A DNA stretch of 64,000 bases from Novosphingobium sp. (GCA_031366845.1 JANLOZ010000257.1:728-64727); one strand, 5' to 3'. Numbered from the stretch's first letter, positions 3,177 through 47,558 are shown. Numbers and translations are program-made. The notes: generated by a model not told the origin, from the letters alone.

Positions 3177-3773
3177 TTATTTGTTTTGGGCAATCTCGCG
3201 CACAAGGCGCGCCACTGCCTGGGCGGTTTCAGCGAGCGCGCTGCCGGTATCGATCACGTGGTCGGCGCGCGCGCGTTTCTCGGCGTCGGGAACCTGCAGC
3301 GCGAGGATCTGCGCGAATTTTTCCGCGCTCATGCCGGGCCGCGCGAGCACCCGCGCGCGCTGTGCCTCGGCGCCCGCCGAGACCACGACAACCGCATCAA
3401 CCCCGGCTTGGCCGCCCTTTTCGAACAGCAGCGGGATGTCAAAAACGACAAGCGGTGCGCCTGAATTGTCGGCGAGGAATTGCTTGCGCATCGCTGCGAC
3501 TGCGGGATGAACAATCGCTTCGAGCTTGGCGAGCTTGGCCTTGTCGCCAAACACCGCCGCTCCCAGCCTGGGCCGATCAACACCTTTTTTGCTGGTGGTG
3601 CCGGGAAACACCGCTTCGATTTCACGCAGCAGTGCACCGCCCGGACCCTGCAAAACATGCACCGCAGCATCGGCATCGAACACCGGCACGCCGAGATCGC
3701 CAAACATCGCCGCGACTGCCGATTTTCCCATGCCGATCGAGCCGGTTAACCCCAGGATGAAGGGCTTGGTCAT
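3177..3773 (-). CDS. coaE: dephospho-CoA kinase
   Basis: [13 protein letters not shown]-loop, LEAIVHP and DIPLLFE motifs. Confidence 0.95.
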
Positions 3774-42990: not shown

Positions 42991-44328
42991 TCAGCCTGCC
43001 AACCTTAAGCCCATCACCGGGGCCTCAATCGCCTTTGGCTGATCGGGCCATATTCCGCGCGTATCATAGACCACTTTGCCAGCACGTTCGGCCAGAGGCA
43101 CCACGCGGAAGACGTCGTGGTCGACGAGCACGATGAGCAGATTGCAGTCTTCGAGCGCGGTGTCCACGTCGATCAGACTCGCCCCGGTTCCTTCAAATTC
43201 ACGCGGCAGTTCAGCGGCATAGGGCTCGACCACCGAAATCCGTGAACCAAACCTGCGCGCCAAAGTCGCTGCGACCAGCCGTGCCGGGCTTTCGCGGAAA
43301 TCATCGATGTTGGCTTTGAAGGCGAGGCCCAGGCAGGCGACCTTTGCATTCGGATTTGCCTTCACCAAAGCATCGGCCTGCGCAATAACATGGTGGATTT
43401 TGCAATCATTGACCCCGCGCGCAGTGCGGATGAGCGGCGAGTGTTCCGGCGCGGAATGGACGATGAACCACGGATCGACCGCTATGCAGTGTCCGCCGAC
43501 ACCCGGCCCCGGTTGGAGGATGTTGACACGCGGGTGGCGGTTGGCGAGGCGGATCACTTCCCACACATCAAGCCCCAGCGAGTCCGAAATCATCGACAGT
43601 TCGTTGGCGAAGGCGATGTTGACATCGCGGTAAGCGTTTTCGACCAACTTGGTCATTTCCGCCGAGCGCGAATCGGTCGTCACACAGGTGCCGCGCACGA
43701 AAAGCTTGTAGAACGCGAGCGCCTTGCGCGCACATCGCGGCGTGATGCCGCCGATTGAGCGGTCGTTATTGGTCAATTCCTCAAGGATTTTCCCGGGCAG
43801 AACCCGCTCGGGGCAATAGGCGACCGAAACGTCAGGCGTTTCATGGGTCTGGTTCCCTTGTCCTGAAGATTTGGCTTGTCCTGAAGATTTGGGAAATTTG
43901 AGGTCGGGGCGTTCAGCGGCGAACAGATCGCGCAAGGTTTCGGTGGTACCGACCGGCGAGGTCGATTCGAGGATCACCATGTCGCCCGCCTTGAGCACCG
44001 CAGCGACCGAGCGGCCGGCGTTGAGCACATAGGTCAGGTCTGGCGCATGCTGTTTGTCGAACGGTGTCGGCACCGCGATGATGAAGACATCGGCGGGGGC
44101 GACGGTGGTGGCGGCAGTGAGCAGACCGCGCGAAACCACGCCCTGCACCAGCCCATCAAGATCAACTTCTTCGATATGAATTTCGCCGCGGTTGATAGTA
44201 TCGACCACGCTTTCGGCAACATCGACGCCGAACACGCGGCACCCTGAACGGGCCACGATGGCGGCGGTTGGCAGGCCGATATAGCCCAGCCCGATTACCG
44301 AGACGTCAGGCTTCTTTTCCAGTTTCAC
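42991..44328 (-). CDS. wecC: UDP-N-acetyl-D-mannosamine dehydrogenase
   Basis: IGLGYIGLPTA, LESTSPVGTT, YCPERVLPG, GPGVGGHCIAVDP and AFKANIDDFRESP motifs; downstream of wecB. Confidence 0.93.
   Translation of the reverse strand: MKLEKKPDVSVIGLGYIGLPTAAIVARSGCRVFGVDVAESVVDTINRGEIHIEEVDLDGLVQGVVSRGLLTAATTVAPADVFIIAVPTPFDKQHAPDLTYVLNAGRSVAAVLKAGDMVILESTSPVGTTETLRDLFAAERPDLKFPKSSGQAKSSGQGNQTHETPDVSVAYCPERVLPGKILEELTNNDRSIGGITPRCARKALAFYKLFVRGTCVTTDSRSAEMTKLVENAYRDVNIAFANELSMISDSLGLDVWEVIRLANRHPRVNILQPGPGVGGHCIAVDPWFIVHSAPEHSPLIRTARGVNDCKIHHVIAQADALVKANPNAKVACLGLAFKANIDDFRESPARLVAATLARRFGSRISVVEPYAAELPREFEGTGASLIDVDTALEDCNLLIVLVDHDVFRVVPLAERAGKVVYDTRGIWPDQPKAIEAPVMGLRLAG
43857..43892. repeat. perfect 18-bp tandem duplication inside wecC
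   Basis: CTTGTCCTGAAGATTTGG x2, in frame, giving KSSGQAKSSGQG. Confidence 0.9.
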
Positions 44329-45451
44329 TACGCAGCAGCTCCACGATCCGGCGCGCAGTTTGCCCATCCCCAAAGGGATTGTGCGCGCGCGCCATGCTTT
44401 CGTAAGCCGCGTTATCGTCGAGCAAGGTGAAGATTTCGGTAACGATACGCGTGGCATCGGTGCCGACGAGCTTTGCCGTTCCCGCCGTAACGCCTTCGGG
44501 CCGCTCAGTAGTTTCGCGCATTACCAGCACCGGTTTGCCAAGCGCAGGGGCCTCTTCCTGCACGCCGCCGCTGTCGGTCAGCATGATGTGGCTCATGCCG
44601 ATCAGACGGGCGAAGTGCGGGTAATCGAGCGGTTCGATCAGCGCGACGTTATCGAGGCCTTTCAGCGCGGCATCCATCACGGCGCGGACATTGGGGTTGG
44701 GGTGGACCGGGAAGACAATCCCCACGTCACTCCGCCGGGCGATCTGGCGGACGGCTTCGGCTATGTTTTCAAGCCCCCCGCCAAAGTTCTCGCGGCGGTG
44801 GCTGGTCACGCCGATGATGCGCTTGCCGGCAAACCGCGCCGCGATTTCGGCCAGACCTGAGGCGAGCGAAGGATTGGCAGCGATCCGCGCGGTTACCCAG
44901 TGGAGCGCGTCGATCACCGTGTTGCCGGTGACGTGGACGCGCGCGGGATCGACGTTTTCTGCGATCAGCGCGGCGGCGGAAACATCGGTCGGCGCGAAAT
45001 GCAGGCTGGCGATTGAACCGATGATCTTGCGGTTCACCTCCTCGGGCCAGGGGTGGTAGATGTTGCCCGAGCGCAGCCCCGCCTCGACATGATCGACAGG
45101 CACCTTGCGGTAATAGGCCGCGAGCGCGCCGCACATGGCGGTGGCAGTATCGCCCTGAACGATCACCCGGTCGGGCTTTTCTGAGTCCATTACGCCGCCG
45201 AGGCCAGTGAGCAGCGCGGCGGTCAGGGCATCGAGGCTCTGGTCTGGCTTCATCAGATCAAGATCGTGATCGGGCGTGATTCCGGCGATCTCCAGAACCT
45301 GATCGAGCATGCCGCGATGTTGCGCGGTGACGCAGACCTTGCAGTCAAACGCAGCGTCGGCCTTGAGCGCGGCGACAAGCGGAAACAGCTTTATAGCCTC
45401 CGGCCGGGTGCCGAAGATAACGAGGATTTTTGTAGGGGTTTTCGCGACCAT
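44306..45451 (-). CDS. wecB: UDP-N-acetylglucosamine 2-epimerase (non-hydrolysing)
   Basis: IFGTRPEAIK, VQGDTAT, HVEAGLRS, HRREN and TDSGGVQEEAP motifs. Confidence 0.97.
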   Translation of the reverse strand: MVAKTPTKILVIFGTRPEAIKLFPLVAALKADAAFDCKVCVTAQHRGMLDQVLEIAGITPDHDLDLMKPDQSLDALTAALLTGLGGVMDSEKPDRVIVQGDTATAMCGALAAYYRKVPVDHVEAGLRSGNIYHPWPEEVNRKIIGSIASLHFAPTDVSAAALIAENVDPARVHVTGNTVIDALHWVTARIAANPSLASGLAEIAARFAGKRIIGVTSHRRENFGGGLENIAEAVRQIARRSDVGIVFPVHPNPNVRAVMDAALKGLDNVALIEPLDYPHFARLIGMSHIMLTDSGGVQEEAPALGKPVLVMRETTERPEGVTAGTAKLVGTDATRIVTEIFTLLDDNAAYESMARAHNPFGDGQTARRIVELLRSETGKEA

Positions 45452-45531
45452 GGCGGCGCTTATAACATGGAGGTGTTAACTGTGCCTAACGGGCCCAGTC
45501 AGCCAAAAGAAACCAAAATGGTTATTTTCGC

Positions 45532-45561
45532 TTGACCCCGATCAATGTTTTTGTTATGTTC
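45532..45561 (+). promoter_or_regulatory. sigma70-type promoter with an overlapping alphaproteobacterial LexA (SOS) box
   Basis: TTGACC (45532-45537) - 17 bp - TATGTT (45555-45560). GTTT-TTGTTAT-GTTC (45547-45561) is one mismatch from GTTC-N7-GTTC and covers the -10. Confidence 0.65.
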
Positions 45562-45584
45562 TCACGTAAATCGTGGAGATCATT

Positions 45585-46664
45585 ATGCCCGCCAACGTTC
45601 ATATCGAGCGCAAATCCATCAAAATGCAGGTCTTCGAACATTACCTACGCACTGGCAGGCGCATCGATGTCAACGACTTGATTGCGGCAGTCGAGCGCAA
45701 GTTCAATCATAATCATGATCAGATTGGGCGCTTCGCCTTCTCGGCGGGAGCTACTTCGGGCGGCAGCTATATGTCAAGGGTAGCCTTTCAGCCGACAAGC
45801 AAGCCCCAGGCACCCAAGACAGCCCGAGCGGAAGGCGCCCACACAAATGCCAAGCCAGTGACAATTGCGGCAGTTGGGCATGGGTCAAATGCAACCGTCG
45901 GCACGAGCGAGTCTCAAGGCCGCATCTCACTACATTCGACTGTCATTGCACCTGAAGACTTGCAAATGCGGGCAAAGGCAATTCCGCGTGGGCATAACGA
46001 ATTGGTCAGAATGCCAAATATGGATGTTGTTGTGTTCGGTCCCGGCGTCAGCCTTGTTCCCGTGCAGGTCGGTTCTTTTGAGAGTTTCGATACCGCAGCC
46101 CATCTTTCCAGCAGAATCCACAATTTGGATGCTGTGATCACCGGGCCACAGTTTGATTTTAACCTTGCGGGCAGCGAAGCTCTTCACGGGCAGACTGTAA
46201 TTGGCGGGCGCGCCTATGGAAAATCGGCCCCCGGACTTTACTACTTCAGCACGGTGACCGGCCGCGATGGCGTCAAACATCTGACGTTCGGCAAGGGTGA
46301 TCCGCCAAGAATCGGCGGCGAGGTCGGATTCGGCGGTGGCGATCCGCTGCTCATTGCGGGGCAGGACGTGCCCGGCTACAACTTAGTTTGGAAATCTCAC
46401 AATGGGATGCCCGGCAAAGGGAAGAATATCGTTGCCTATAACTCAAGATCGAACGTCACAGCCGTTTTCGTTCAGCATCACGGCAAAACAGGATACGAGC
46501 TCAAGTCAGTCCGAGATTACCTCAGAAAATCTGGATTTGATTATGCATTGATGTATGATGGCTCCCGTTCAGTTTCCTTAAACTACAGAGGTTCTCCGAT
46601 TGTATCTCCGGGAGCAGATCGTCAGATGTTAATTCCCTTGGGAATTGGATTCCGATCAAAGTGA
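45585..46664 (+). CDS. hypothetical modular protein: N-terminal FEHYLRTGR...KFNxxHDxxGRF module plus divergent phosphodiester-glycosidase-like (DUF2233/NAGPA-like) C-terminal domain; candidate polymorphic effector
   Basis: 359-aa ORF with GGAG 6 nt before the ATG and no signal peptide. The C-terminal motifs DAVITGPQF, GGGDPLLIAG, GKNIVAY and GFDYALMYDGSRSVSL occur in the order of the DUF2233 motifs (xxINGxfF, gGPxL, RTaiG, AlNLDGGGS). Confidence 0.6.
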   Translation: MPANVHIERKSIKMQVFEHYLRTGRRIDVNDLIAAVERKFNHNHDQIGRFAFSAGATSGGSYMSRVAFQPTSKPQAPKTARAEGAHTNAKPVTIAAVGHGSNATVGTSESQGRISLHSTVIAPEDLQMRAKAIPRGHNELVRMPNMDVVVFGPGVSLVPVQVGSFESFDTAAHLSSRIHNLDAVITGPQFDFNLAGSEALHGQTVIGGRAYGKSAPGLYYFSTVTGRDGVKHLTFGKGDPPRIGGEVGFGGGDPLLIAGQDVPGYNLVWKSHNGMPGKGKNIVAYNSRSNVTAVFVQHHGKTGYELKSVRDYLRKSGFDYALMYDGSRSVSLNYRGSPIVSPGADRQMLIPLGIGFRSK

Positions 46665-46993
46665 ATCTGAATTTCTGTAATATGTCGACCGAGCTTTGGA
46701 CTGCGATCTCTTTGCTCTCTCTCTTGCTGGGGGCCACTTTGGGCCTTGTCTTGCAACGCCTTTTCTCAAAGGCCGGGAATGACCTTTCTTCGTCTAGCGC
46801 CCACAACTTGGCAGGCTGCCTGATTCCGGTTCTTTTTGCATTTTTTACGGGATTCATTGCGGCCAAATTGCTGCCGGATGATCCATGCGGGGGGGGCTAT
46901 ACAGCCGATTCGATGTTTGTGCCGTTTCAGGTCATCCCGTTGGTAGCAGCTGCCGGGGGTATCTTCTTCTGGTTCAAGGTTTTGCGCAAGTAA
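46661..46993 (+). CDS. small 3-TM membrane protein, candidate immunity protein
   Basis: GTG start overlaps the upstream TGA (alternative ATG at 46682); three hydrophobic segments; lower GC than the flanks. Confidence 0.6.
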   Translation: MNLNFCNMSTELWTAISLLSLLLGATLGLVLQRLFSKAGNDLSSSSAHNLAGCLIPVLFAFFTGFIAAKLLPDDPCGGGYTADSMFVPFQVIPLVAAAGGIFFWFKVLRK

Positions 46994-47000
46994 GATGCAC

Positions 47001-47558
47001 CTATTTGCCGGCAGGCGCCGGATTTGTCAGCGGCGGCAGCGGCTTGCCGTCCTGTTCTGCGCGCTGGCGGGCCTCGGCATCTTTTTCCGCCTGTTCGACG
47101 CGGGACTGGGTGGAAGCGGCATCGCTATCGACCGTGGCGAGGCGCTTGCCGCGTTCTTCTTCGATGATCTTGGCGAACGAGACATCCACCGCGCCGCGCT
47201 TTTCAGCGTAGGCATCATCGATCAGCCGCTGCGAACAGCCGGTCCAGCCGCCGGCGCCGACGGGCGTGCAGCTGAGCGTGCCGGTCTTGCCGACACGTTC
47301 ATAGGCCATCACCCGGCTGTTCCACGATTGGCTGTTGGCGCTGGGCGTTTCGCGCAGGCCCTGCGGGATGCGGTAGCGTTCAGCCTCGGGCTTACGGGCG
47401 CAGACGGTGATTTCATCCCCTGCGGGCTTGGGGCATTCGTCTTTGCCGTAGACGATGATTGCGTTGACTTTTTCACTGGCACCACCGTCCTCGGCAAAGG
47501 CCGGGGCGGGGCCTGCGGCGAGCAGGACGGCGAGCAGCGGGGTTACGGTAAAACGCAT
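47001..47558 (-). CDS. conserved secreted hypothetical protein (sphingomonad type)
   Basis: Signal peptide ending APAFA, IIVYGKDECP...EITVCAR...ERYRIP motif and a second Cys pair. Confidence 0.7.
   Translation of the reverse strand: MRFTVTPLLAVLLAAGPAPAFAEDGGASEKVNAIIVYGKDECPKPAGDEITVCARKPEAERYRIPQGLRETPSANSQSWNSRVMAYERVGKTGTLSCTPVGAGGWTGCSQRLIDDAYAEKRGAVDVSFAKIIEEERGKRLATVDSDAASTQSRVEQAEKDAEARQRAEQDGKPLPPLTNPAPAGK

Follow-up and report, generated by a model that had tools for sequence, protein, structure and literature searches.

A likely polymorphic toxin-immunity cassette beside wecB in a Novosphingobium genome, and its family in Sphingomonadales

We analyzed a 64,000-nucleotide stretch of DNA from Novosphingobium sp. 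(GCA_031366845.1 JANLOZ010000257.1:728-64727; the whole stretch is called the window here, and positions are counted from its first letter), in which two overlapping genes, X and Y, lie beside wecB. Judging from the sequences, X and Y are likely to form a toxin-immunity cassette in a family of polymorphic toxins that has not been described before and is nearly confined to Sphingomonadales. Across the family, the promoter, a LexA-type box, the 5' untranslated region, and an N-terminal module make up the constant unit of the system, and the C-terminal enzyme together with the small gene behind it is the variable part, the two being exchanged together. An earlier note on this DNA had proposed a polymorphic effector/immunity pair. 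Modularity, co-variation of the partner genes, and enrichment of the box all support that proposal. Of the two forms that it allowed, a colicin-like system or cargo of a phage or gene transfer agent (GTA), new evidence points toward a connection with GTAs. The features of the cassette are as follows.

45532-45560, plus strand: sigma-70-type promoter TTGACC-17-TATGTT, with the -35 at 45532-45537, the -10 at 45555-45560, and an extended -10 TG
45547-45561, plus strand: LexA-type box GTTTTTGTTATGTTC, GTTT-N7-GTTC, matching 7 of the 8 specified positions of the alphaproteobacterial box and overlapping the -10
45585-46664, plus strand: gene X, predicted toxin, 359 aa from ATG, composed of an N-terminal module, a disordered linker, and an NAGPA-like domain
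45615-45743, plus strand: N-terminal module (N-module), residues 11-53 of X, SIKMQVFEHYLRTGRR…ERKFNHNHDQIGRFAFS, which is constant across the family and may be a tag for trafficking or loading
45744-45917, plus strand: linker of X, about residues 54-111, predicted to be disordered, variable and rich in Ser, Thr, Pro, Ala, and Gly
45918-46661, plus strand: divergent NAGPA/DUF2233-fold, phosphodiester-glycosidase-like domain, residues 112-359 of X, the predicted warhead
46661-46993, plus strand: gene Y, a 110-aa inner-membrane protein with three transmembrane (TM) segments, the predicted cognate immunity protein, whose GTG start overlaps the stop of X (GTGA)

The layout of the cassette agrees in its details with what the earlier note had read from it. 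The promoter is the only sigma-70-like site between 45300 and 47300, and the box over its -10 differs from the alphaproteobacterial consensus at one position. The arrangement of -35 and box is kept in the orthologues at loci L001 and L002 and in many other cassettes. A GGAG lies 7 nt upstream of the ATG of X, with an alternative GTG start at 45573, and the N-terminus of the 359-aa protein is hydrophilic and carries no signal peptide. The succession of motif module, linker, and enzyme-like domain that had been claimed for X recurs, together with a coupled small gene, in dozens of independent loci. Y has three hydrophobic segments (residues 12-30, 50-68, and 85-103), and the GTGA overlap leads us to predict that its translation is coupled to that of X. 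The composition is atypical, as had been stated, with a GC content that drops to 0.47-0.55 across 45400-47000, where the flanks have about 0.60-0.66. X-Y has no transposase, integrase, or lysis gene next to it in the window, again in line with the note.

We searched with X exhaustively over 1.8 billion representative proteins using phmmer. The 161 matches split into two disjoint sets, one aligning to the C-terminal domain only and the other to X residues ~5-100 only; members of the second set are proteins of 80-460 aa with quite different C-termini. A profile of the N-module (A2) was then searched in species-representative genomes and gave 73 loci. Almost all are in Sphingomonadales (Novosphingobium, Sphingobium, Sphingomonas, Blastomonas, Chakrabartia, and others), and those outside the order are a few metagenome-assembled genomes (MAGs) of Caulobacteraceae or Hyphomicrobiaceae. 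The module comprises ~45 residues with the pattern F.HYLRTG…KFNP.HD..GRFT and is common to at least 80 proteins with different C-termini. Pfam domains found in 82 module proteins include T6SS_VgrG3-like_C (8), Phage_lysozyme2 (4), Glucosaminidase (2), Endonuclea_NS_2 (5), and LysM (11), as well as SLT, Amidase_2, Peptidase_M23, and Peptidase_M74. One further protein has a weak colicin-M match, and several large classes have no Pfam assignment. Clustering of the C-terminal regions of 56 genome loci gave 12 clusters, and in all there are at least nine Pfam catalytic families in addition to NAGPA-like, ColM-like, and unassigned classes. A constant N-terminal region is therefore joined to diverse, unrelated C-terminal domains, which is what the earlier note had expected a search with the module to find.

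The N-module itself matched nothing in Pfam, NCBIfam, PHROG, or the PDB, and its motif strings were not found in the papers searched. A word-indexed search with X residues 1-60 returned only the cluster of X itself and one orthologue, a result shaped by the limits of the index. We also considered whether the module imitates the junction of delta-domain and N-arm in the GTA capsid protein (…F.DGYLR.G…). This is not supported: the hhalign alignment covers just 9 columns (P 0.01, probability 4%). A weak PDB match of the module to the capsid of the Rhodobacter capsulatus GTA (RcGTA) was set aside as well, its E value of 1.6 being at noise level.

The small gene behind X is likewise a general feature. 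An open reading frame (ORF) of 109-160 aa follows nearly every module gene at a spacing of -4 to +38 bp. When C-terminal regions and downstream ORFs were clustered separately and then paired, the clusters co-varied: C1 with D1 in 16 of 21 cases, C4 with D3 in five of five, C5 with D4 in four of four, and C6 with D6 in two of two (permutation p <= 2e-4, with the caveat that the loci are related by descent). Behind a VgrG3-type muramidase stands a lysozyme inhibitor of the LprI family, which carries a signal peptide and scores above the Pfam cut-off, and the other partners are lipoprotein-like, secreted, multi-TM, or, in the nuclease classes, cytoplasmic. The consistently linked small gene that the earlier note had called for thus exists, its family changes with the C-terminal domain, and one such family is a lysozyme inhibitor. 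Homologues of Y stand behind the X orthologues of L002/L003 (70% identity), L004/L005 (42%), and L001 (as an uncalled ORF), and in L006 the X homologue is followed by an 84-aa ORF with three TM segments. No recurrent third gene was seen in the 73 loci, and X and Y are the only genes between wecB and the convergent gene on the other side. Tandem arrays of cassettes are rare (2/76 loci).

Next, we scanned 61 loci, anchored on the first codon of the module, for SOS boxes. A perfect GTTC-N7-GTTC on the coding strand is found in 30 of them, compared with 0.17 expected from shuffled sequences, and a box with one mismatch in another 14 (4.6 expected). Most perfect boxes lie 84-92 nt upstream of the module, where they follow a TTGAC -35 and cover the -10. 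They span at least 10 C-terminal classes, and their half-sites are conserved between spacers that vary. The recurrence of upstream boxes that had been suggested thus holds very strongly for the family, at a fixed position, and falls short at the window copy by its one mismatch. The orthologue at L001, 49% identical to X, has a perfect box, as do all three other module genes of the window genome. In the same genome, GTTC-N7-GTTC precedes lexA (TIGR00498), radA (TIGR00416), and a PA0069-family radical SAM gene. It also precedes genes that we take from their sequences to be helicase-like and RmuC-like. Full CtrA sites (TTAA-N7-TTAA) were looked for upstream of the cassettes and none was found. 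The family thus appears to be switched on by DNA damage, with LexA as the predicted repressor.

We then examined the enzyme-like domain of X. Sequence searches of NCBIfam, PHROGs, and the PDB gave no match for X. Among 5.8 billion clustered proteins there are 21 full-length homologues, which share the N-terminal motif block (F.HYLRTG.R … KFNP.HD..GRFT), a linker, and a conserved C-terminal domain of ~235 residues. Their linker is rich in Ser, Thr, Pro, and Arg, varies in length, and cannot be aligned. PF09992 (NAGPA) matches 18 of the 21 homologues at E <= 0.01 (best E 7.8e-8), and four of them (P0022, P0023, P0027, and P0072) exceed the Pfam cut-off. The polar residues Q189, Q203, D239, W269, Q297, D325-G-S327, and R346 are invariant in the alignment (A1), and a DG(S/G)GS-type signature region near the C-terminus of X aligns to the PF09992 hidden Markov model. 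The AlphaFold2 model is confident for residues 112-359, with a predicted local distance difference test score (pLDDT) mostly of 75-95 and of ~60 in two short stretches. The pLDDT is below 50 for residues 32-101, and the N-module is modeled with low confidence. A Foldseek search with the model gave 5h3k, an uncharacterized Synechocystis protein, as the top match, followed by 3ohg (DUF2233) and the vertebrate NAGPA catalytic domains 6pku, 6pky, 6pkg, and 6u11, and lower down by 6ozd, an uncharacterized bacterial protein. All of these have a probability of 1.0, and the E values from 5h3k to the NAGPA domains are 3e-9 to 1e-6. For 3ohg, 6pku, 6pky, 6pkg, and 6u11, the E values are 7.5e-9 to 1e-6 and the TM-scores (target) about 0.5-0.56, at 12-14% sequence identity between X and the solved NAGPA/DUF2233 structures. 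Because homologues match NAGPA, and because the AlphaFold2 model and its Foldseek matches agree with them, the enzyme-like domain of X is, as modeled, a divergent phosphodiester-glycosidase fold.

The same domain occurs on other scaffolds. It forms the extreme C-terminus of two RHS proteins, P0047 (4014 aa, with 19 RHS repeat matches) and P0082 (960 aa), and of the DUF637 protein P0032; the extreme C-terminus is the classic position of a toxin. In the two loci retrieved, those of the 960-aa RHS protein and of P0032, a small multi-TM ORF comes next, overlapping or adjacent, and is not detectably homologous to Y. We know of no toxin role described for the NAGPA/DUF2233 fold, and we predict from these arrangements that three different carriers use the domain as their terminal toxin module. 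Y in turn is predicted to be the immunity protein of X, with a target at the cytoplasmic membrane, because the three carriers with this one warhead fold always have a membrane partner; this is the strongest argument for the assignment. In Bacillota, NAGPA domains have been noted in conflict-type proteins, where they are fused to TelC, which resembles a lipid-II phosphatase (PMC12419801). By analogy, that fusion would fit a lipid-linked sugar-phosphate as the target of X.

The window genome holds four copies of the module, and the module was found in 4 of 101 sampled Sphingomonadales genomes and is absent from one of the same genus. Two of the other copies (C86:8981-10066 and C207:2918-4338) are intact cassettes with perfect LexA boxes and lytic-transglycosylase-like domains. 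The partner of one is an 85-aa TM ORF (third-codon-position GC content, GC3, 0.37) and that of the other is a lipoprotein-like ORF, and GC3 in the two cassettes is 0.37-0.51 against ~0.75 in neighboring genes. In the remaining copy (C108:9344-10294, minus strand), the module gene appears to be split into a 195-aa ORF, containing the module and the start of an L033-like domain (weak colicin-M match), and a 103-aa ORF that continues the domain. This locus ends with a 132-aa ORF with a signal peptide and is probably a frameshifted toxin gene with its immunity gene kept.

Several observations connect the family with GTA and phage heads. In L004/L005, the large terminase and portal genes of an RcGTA-type cluster flank an X-Y homologue (P0008). 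In a Caulobacteraceae MAG (L033), a colicin-M-like module gene and a TM ORF are found at the same junction of terL and portal. In a Hyphomicrobiaceae MAG (L082:169-2091), the portal protein (PF04860, E 7e-88) continues at its C-terminus through …PKFNPHHDDLGRFTF… into a deaminase-like domain as a single fusion, the link consisting of …PKFNPHHDDLGRFTFKPDG… and a linker, with the motif KFNPHHDDLGRFTF. Deam_C and MafB19-deam both match this domain below threshold, and the fusion is followed by a 157-aa ORF and then by a displaced remnant of the 3' end of the portal gene. Large phage polyvalent proteins with ART-PolyVal, LPD1, Zeta-toxin, and Alt-like ART domains also contain the short motif, in 3-6 copies, and these proteins match head-protein PHROGs, minor-head proteins among them. 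The L004 cluster has a second stretch of a similar kind between prohead protease and capsid (L004:8691-10230), with a degenerate orphan N-module ORF of 64 aa, a 153-aa ORF, and a very AT-rich stretch of ~600 bp, which looks like a second, decayed cassette insertion in the head module. The junction of terL and portal varies in its contents. It holds the X-Y homologue in L004 (L004:5181-6758), in the window genome a 182-aa ORF that has a TM segment near its N-terminus (C46:5959-6870), and what we take to be a ParD/ParE-like pair in G016 (L094:4192-4979), and terL and portal are adjacent in G100.

The promoters give a second connection. The GTA head-tail promoters of four Sphingomonadaceae genomes have the form TAACC-N5-GGTT-N8-TTGACA-N16-GTAC-N7-GAAC, and the palindrome at their 5' end is also found in front of X.

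C46:3971-4035 (window genome), L004:~3185-3260, L093, and L094: GTA head-tail promoters, with CGTCACGCTG between TTGACA and GTAC-N7-GAAC
45511-45523, plus strand: palindrome AACC-AAAAT-GGTT, 8 nt 5' of the -35 of X, common to the GTA head-tail cluster promoters and a putative regulator site

GTAC-N7-GAAC overlies the -10 of the GTA promoters, and its reverse complement is a LexA box with one mismatch (GTTC-N7-GTAC), which suggests a direct SOS input into GTA expression in Sphingomonadales. From the GTA promoters we derived the composite pattern [AT]ACC-N5-GG[TC][TA]-N7-8-TTGAC. It occurs five times in the whole 3.5-Mb genome: at the GTA cluster promoter, at X, at the C86 paralogue, and at two GC-rich sites that are probably due to chance. 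The three AT-rich occurrences are thus exactly the GTA promoter, X, and C86. A looser form is found upstream of 11 of 64 cassettes, compared with 0.02 in shuffled sequences (X, C86, and ~10 other cassettes). The loose palindrome alone is not specific genome-wide, with 25-34 matches against 11-39 in random genomes.

From these results we propose a course of events for X and Y. LexA would repress the promoter, and X and Y would be made after DNA damage. The subset of cassettes with the AACC-N5-GGTT/-35 element, X-Y among them, would be expressed in cells that are making GTA particles and lysing, because this subset shares the element with the GTA promoter. X would be harmless in the cytoplasm of the producer until lysis because it has no signal peptide, and would leave the cell at that point. 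The N-module may act as a loading tag for HK97-type heads, whether of GTA or phage, and the toxin would then reach the envelope of the recipient with the particle. There, the NAGPA-like domain would probably cleave the sugar-1-phosphate linkage of a membrane-bound envelope precursor (an undecaprenyl-pyrophosphate-linked sugar, lipid-II-like). A lipid-linked target would also explain why this domain is in every case paired with an immunity protein embedded in the membrane. Kin would be protected by Y. Particle-borne delivery is the route that we prefer, at not quite an even chance; a free, colicin-like route is somewhat unlikely, and other routes take up the rest.

Taken further, the proposal becomes one of armed sphingomonad GTAs or HK97-type particles, which we regard as possible and on balance doubtful. 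An SOS box and the GTA promoter element would drive the cassette, the N-module would load the toxin at the portal, the particles would deliver it to recipients, and matching immunity would spare kin. KFNP.HD..GRF could then be a hinge or processing site, as in the phage polyvalent proteins and the L082 fusion. The enzymes delivered would attack the wall, the lipid carrier, or DNA, and only immune kin would keep the transferred DNA. The NAGPA-like domain would represent a new toxin activity that cleaves lipid-linked precursors.

A number of findings weigh against the toxin-immunity reading or against its particle-borne form. The first half-site of the LexA-type box is GTTT in the window copy and in its 76%-identical orthologue. 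X itself scores 13.9 bits against PF09992, under the 25-bit cut-off. Among close homologues of X the C-terminus is constant, so the polymorphic C-terminus claimed in the earlier note is a property of the wider N-module family and not of the nearest relatives. No secretion, lysis, or receptor gene is linked to X-Y, and for the nuclease classes periplasmic delivery alone would be insufficient. The composite promoter pattern was drawn up post hoc, with both groups of promoters already in view. With regard to GTA cargo in particular, the capsid protein was used as the marker of a GTA, since PF13547 (GTA_TIM) had no match even in genomes with a GTA cluster. By this marker, G079 has three module genes and no detectable GTA capsid, and in G067 the capsid gene is interrupted. 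GTA clusters are common and cassettes are rare, and the junction of terL and portal, which also takes up unrelated inserts, may simply be a hot spot for insertion.

The alternative that survives best is a free bacteriocin like a colicin or S-type pyocin, released by SOS-linked lysis and entering target cells by itself. The N-module and linker would then serve in receptor binding and translocation, for example through a TonB-dependent transporter, and the GTA contexts would be incidental. We hold this to be unlikely, yet well ahead of any other rival. It would account for the LexA box over the promoter, for the immunity gene directly 3' of X, and for the order of short N-terminal domain, disordered linker, and C-terminal catalytic domain. 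The family also holds a colicin-M-like domain and many peptidoglycan hydrolases that act in the periplasm and have secreted or lipoprotein partners. The lack of a linked secretion system, the absence of a T6SS from three of the four carrier genomes, and the genome with the module and no detectable GTA capsid fit as well. However, no lysis or release gene and no recognizable TonB or Tol box accompany the toxin, and a free bacteriocin would not account for the fusion of portal, motif, and toxin, for the recurrence of the motif in phage proteins that are packaged into heads, or for the promoter element in common with GTA clusters.

An effector of the type VI secretion system (T6SS) was considered and rejected. 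The sheath gene TssC is absent from 3/4 carrier genomes, and no vgrG, PAAR, or adaptor gene stands beside the cassettes; among the 73 loci no secretion-related neighbor recurs. The window genome does have a T6SS sheath gene, TssC/VipB (C23:10556-11452, 415 bits), unlinked to the cassette and absent from the five related genomes examined.

It is improbable that X and Y are instead a lysis cassette, in which X would hydrolyze the envelope as an endolysin does and Y would be a holin of class-I type, the two releasing GTA or phage particles after SOS induction. A cytoplasmic enzyme followed by an overlapping 110-aa protein with three TM segments has the look of such a cassette, the promoter of X resembles that of the GTA cluster, and a homologous pair lies inside a GTA head module. 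Moreover, the C-terminal domains of most sister proteins are catalytic domains typical of endolysins, in some cases with LysM. However, many of the sister partners are soluble, secreted, or lipoproteins, including the LprI lysozyme inhibitor, and are not holins, and an endolysin function is impossible for the nuclease and deaminase-like members. RHS and DUF637 toxins with TM partners carry the NAGPA-like domain at their C-terminal tip. Furthermore, the module is found in only ~4% of Sphingomonadales genomes although the GTA is common, the window genome has four copies of it, and the C-terminus of Y is just KVLRK, without the long charged tail of a holin.

The insertion site is defined by the genes on either side of the cassette, both outside it.

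44306-45451, minus strand: wecB (UDP-N-acetylglucosamine, UDP-GlcNAc, 2-epimerase), left flank of the insertion site
47001-47558, minus strand: conserved gene of 185 aa (p185) with a signal-peptide-like N-terminus, right flank of the insertion site

The gap between Y and the convergent p185 is 7 bp (46994-47000), as the earlier note had it. X adjoins wecB divergently in the window and in L002/L003, and so does the 49%-identical X of L001. The start of wecB and the stop of p185 are ~120 bp apart in a related genome (G007), with no cassette between them, and this empty site bears out the insertion beside wecBC that had been claimed. In G100, of the same genus, wecB is not next to p185, and other X-Y homologues lie elsewhere, inside a GTA cluster in L004 and with unrelated neighbors in L006. 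X-Y is thus a 1.55-kb accessory insertion between wecB and p185, and the wecBC neighborhood is a matter of synteny, not of function, because the site is empty in G007, the pair occurs in other contexts, and its distribution is patchy. A housekeeping envelope or polysaccharide enzyme tied to wecB and wecC, for example one that trims ManNAc(A)/GlcNAc-1-phosphate polymers with Y as its membrane partner, would suit the conserved position and the action of NAGPA chemistry on GlcNAc-1-phosphodiesters, but is very improbable given these same findings, the low GC content, the missing signal peptide, and the family-wide N-module, LexA box, and toxin-type architecture of X. Functional coupling to wecBC was rejected in view of the X-Y pairs elsewhere and the empty site.

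Two further observations concern the flanking genes. The p185 protein has a Lys/Glu/Ala-rich C-terminus and no family match, and the synteny of its gene with COQ7-like, DsbB, and CtpA genes is kept across genera. The longest wecC ORF (42991-44457, minus strand) has 488 aa and overlaps wecB by ~150 nt. The wecC orthologues have 425-433 aa, and the true start of wecC is probably an internal codon.

If the toxin-immunity reading is right, the cassettes would constitute a new clade-specific family of polymorphic toxins or bacteriocins, recognizable by an N-terminal module that is new to the literature searched and by the SOS operator that accompanies it. To our knowledge, the bacterial roles of the NAGPA/DUF2233 fold are essentially unknown. 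Our analysis nominates the fold as an antibacterial warhead, and the membrane antidote points to a lipid-linked envelope precursor as its target. The family could also serve as a catalog of matched pairs of hydrolase and inhibitor. The shared promoter elements, the cassettes inside GTA head modules, and the portal-toxin fusion offer a concrete and testable link between interbacterial toxins and GTAs. The selective benefit of GTAs is a long-standing puzzle. If toxins are co-expressed with GTAs or carried by them, release would also mean kin-selective killing, and armed particles, if they exist, would add a layer of kin discrimination to GTA-mediated gene exchange.

With polymorphic toxin systems (Zhang, Aravind et al. 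2012, PMC3482391), the family shares the combination of a constant N-terminal part with interchangeable C-terminal toxin domains, the co-varying immunity gene downstream, domains that are also found in RHS and CdiA proteins, and a patchy, mobile distribution. It differs in that its N-module matches no described trafficking domain and no secretion apparatus is linked to it. Its proteins are small (220-400 aa), its cassettes are mostly solitary, and a LexA box belongs to the constant unit.

Colicins, S- and M-type pyocins, and pesticin have the same features of a predicted LexA operator over the promoter, a layout of N-terminal domain, linker, and catalytic domain, and an immunity gene behind. 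Their targets are likewise peptidoglycan or lipid II (colicin-M-like enzymes and muramidases) or nucleic acids, and toxins that act in the periplasm have periplasmic or membrane immunity proteins. In contrast, the X family is chromosomal, scattered, and hosted by Sphingomonadales, and has no lysis gene, recognizable TonB or Tol box, or receptor-binding domain. In library searches, the N-module and linker of X had no similarity to known translocation and receptor-binding (T/R) domains. The motif of the family is instead shared with phage head proteins, and its promoter element with GTA clusters.

Among enzymes, the closest comparison is with the NAGPA/DUF2233 phosphodiester glycosidases (PF09992; 3ohg, 6pku), with which X shares the predicted fold and the signature region. 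Unlike these, X is very divergent, predicted to be cytoplasmic in the producer, and paired with a three-TM partner.

In Rhodobacter capsulatus, GTA production is known to be linked to LexA. Dispersed accessory loci of the RcGTA (head spikes, tail fibers, and lysis genes) are co-regulated with the head-tail cluster by GafA/CtrA (PMC9638019), and they resemble the cassettes in being spread over the chromosome and in having promoter features in common with the structural cluster of the GTA. Here, however, the products are predicted toxin-immunity pairs, the AACC-N5-GGTT element and its putative binding factor are uncharacterized, and only a subset of the cassettes is involved.

MuF toxins (Jamet et al. 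2017, PMC5576092) have in common with the family a head-associated N-terminal part, a downstream immunity gene, and a proposed delivery by particles. The relatives in L004/L005, L033, and L082 lie in a terminase/portal packaging module, although the window copy does not. About 96% of muf genes are in prophages (PMC5576092), whereas the X family consists mostly of solitary chromosomal inserts with an SOS promoter of their own, and in L082 the carrier is the portal itself. No MuF domain (PF04233/PF06152-type) was detected in X or in any of the 82 module proteins. The family is set apart from MuF toxins and from colicins because it has no MuF domain, no lysis gene, and no known T/R domains, and as predicted here it is functionally a polymorphic toxin-immunity system with colicin-like regulation.

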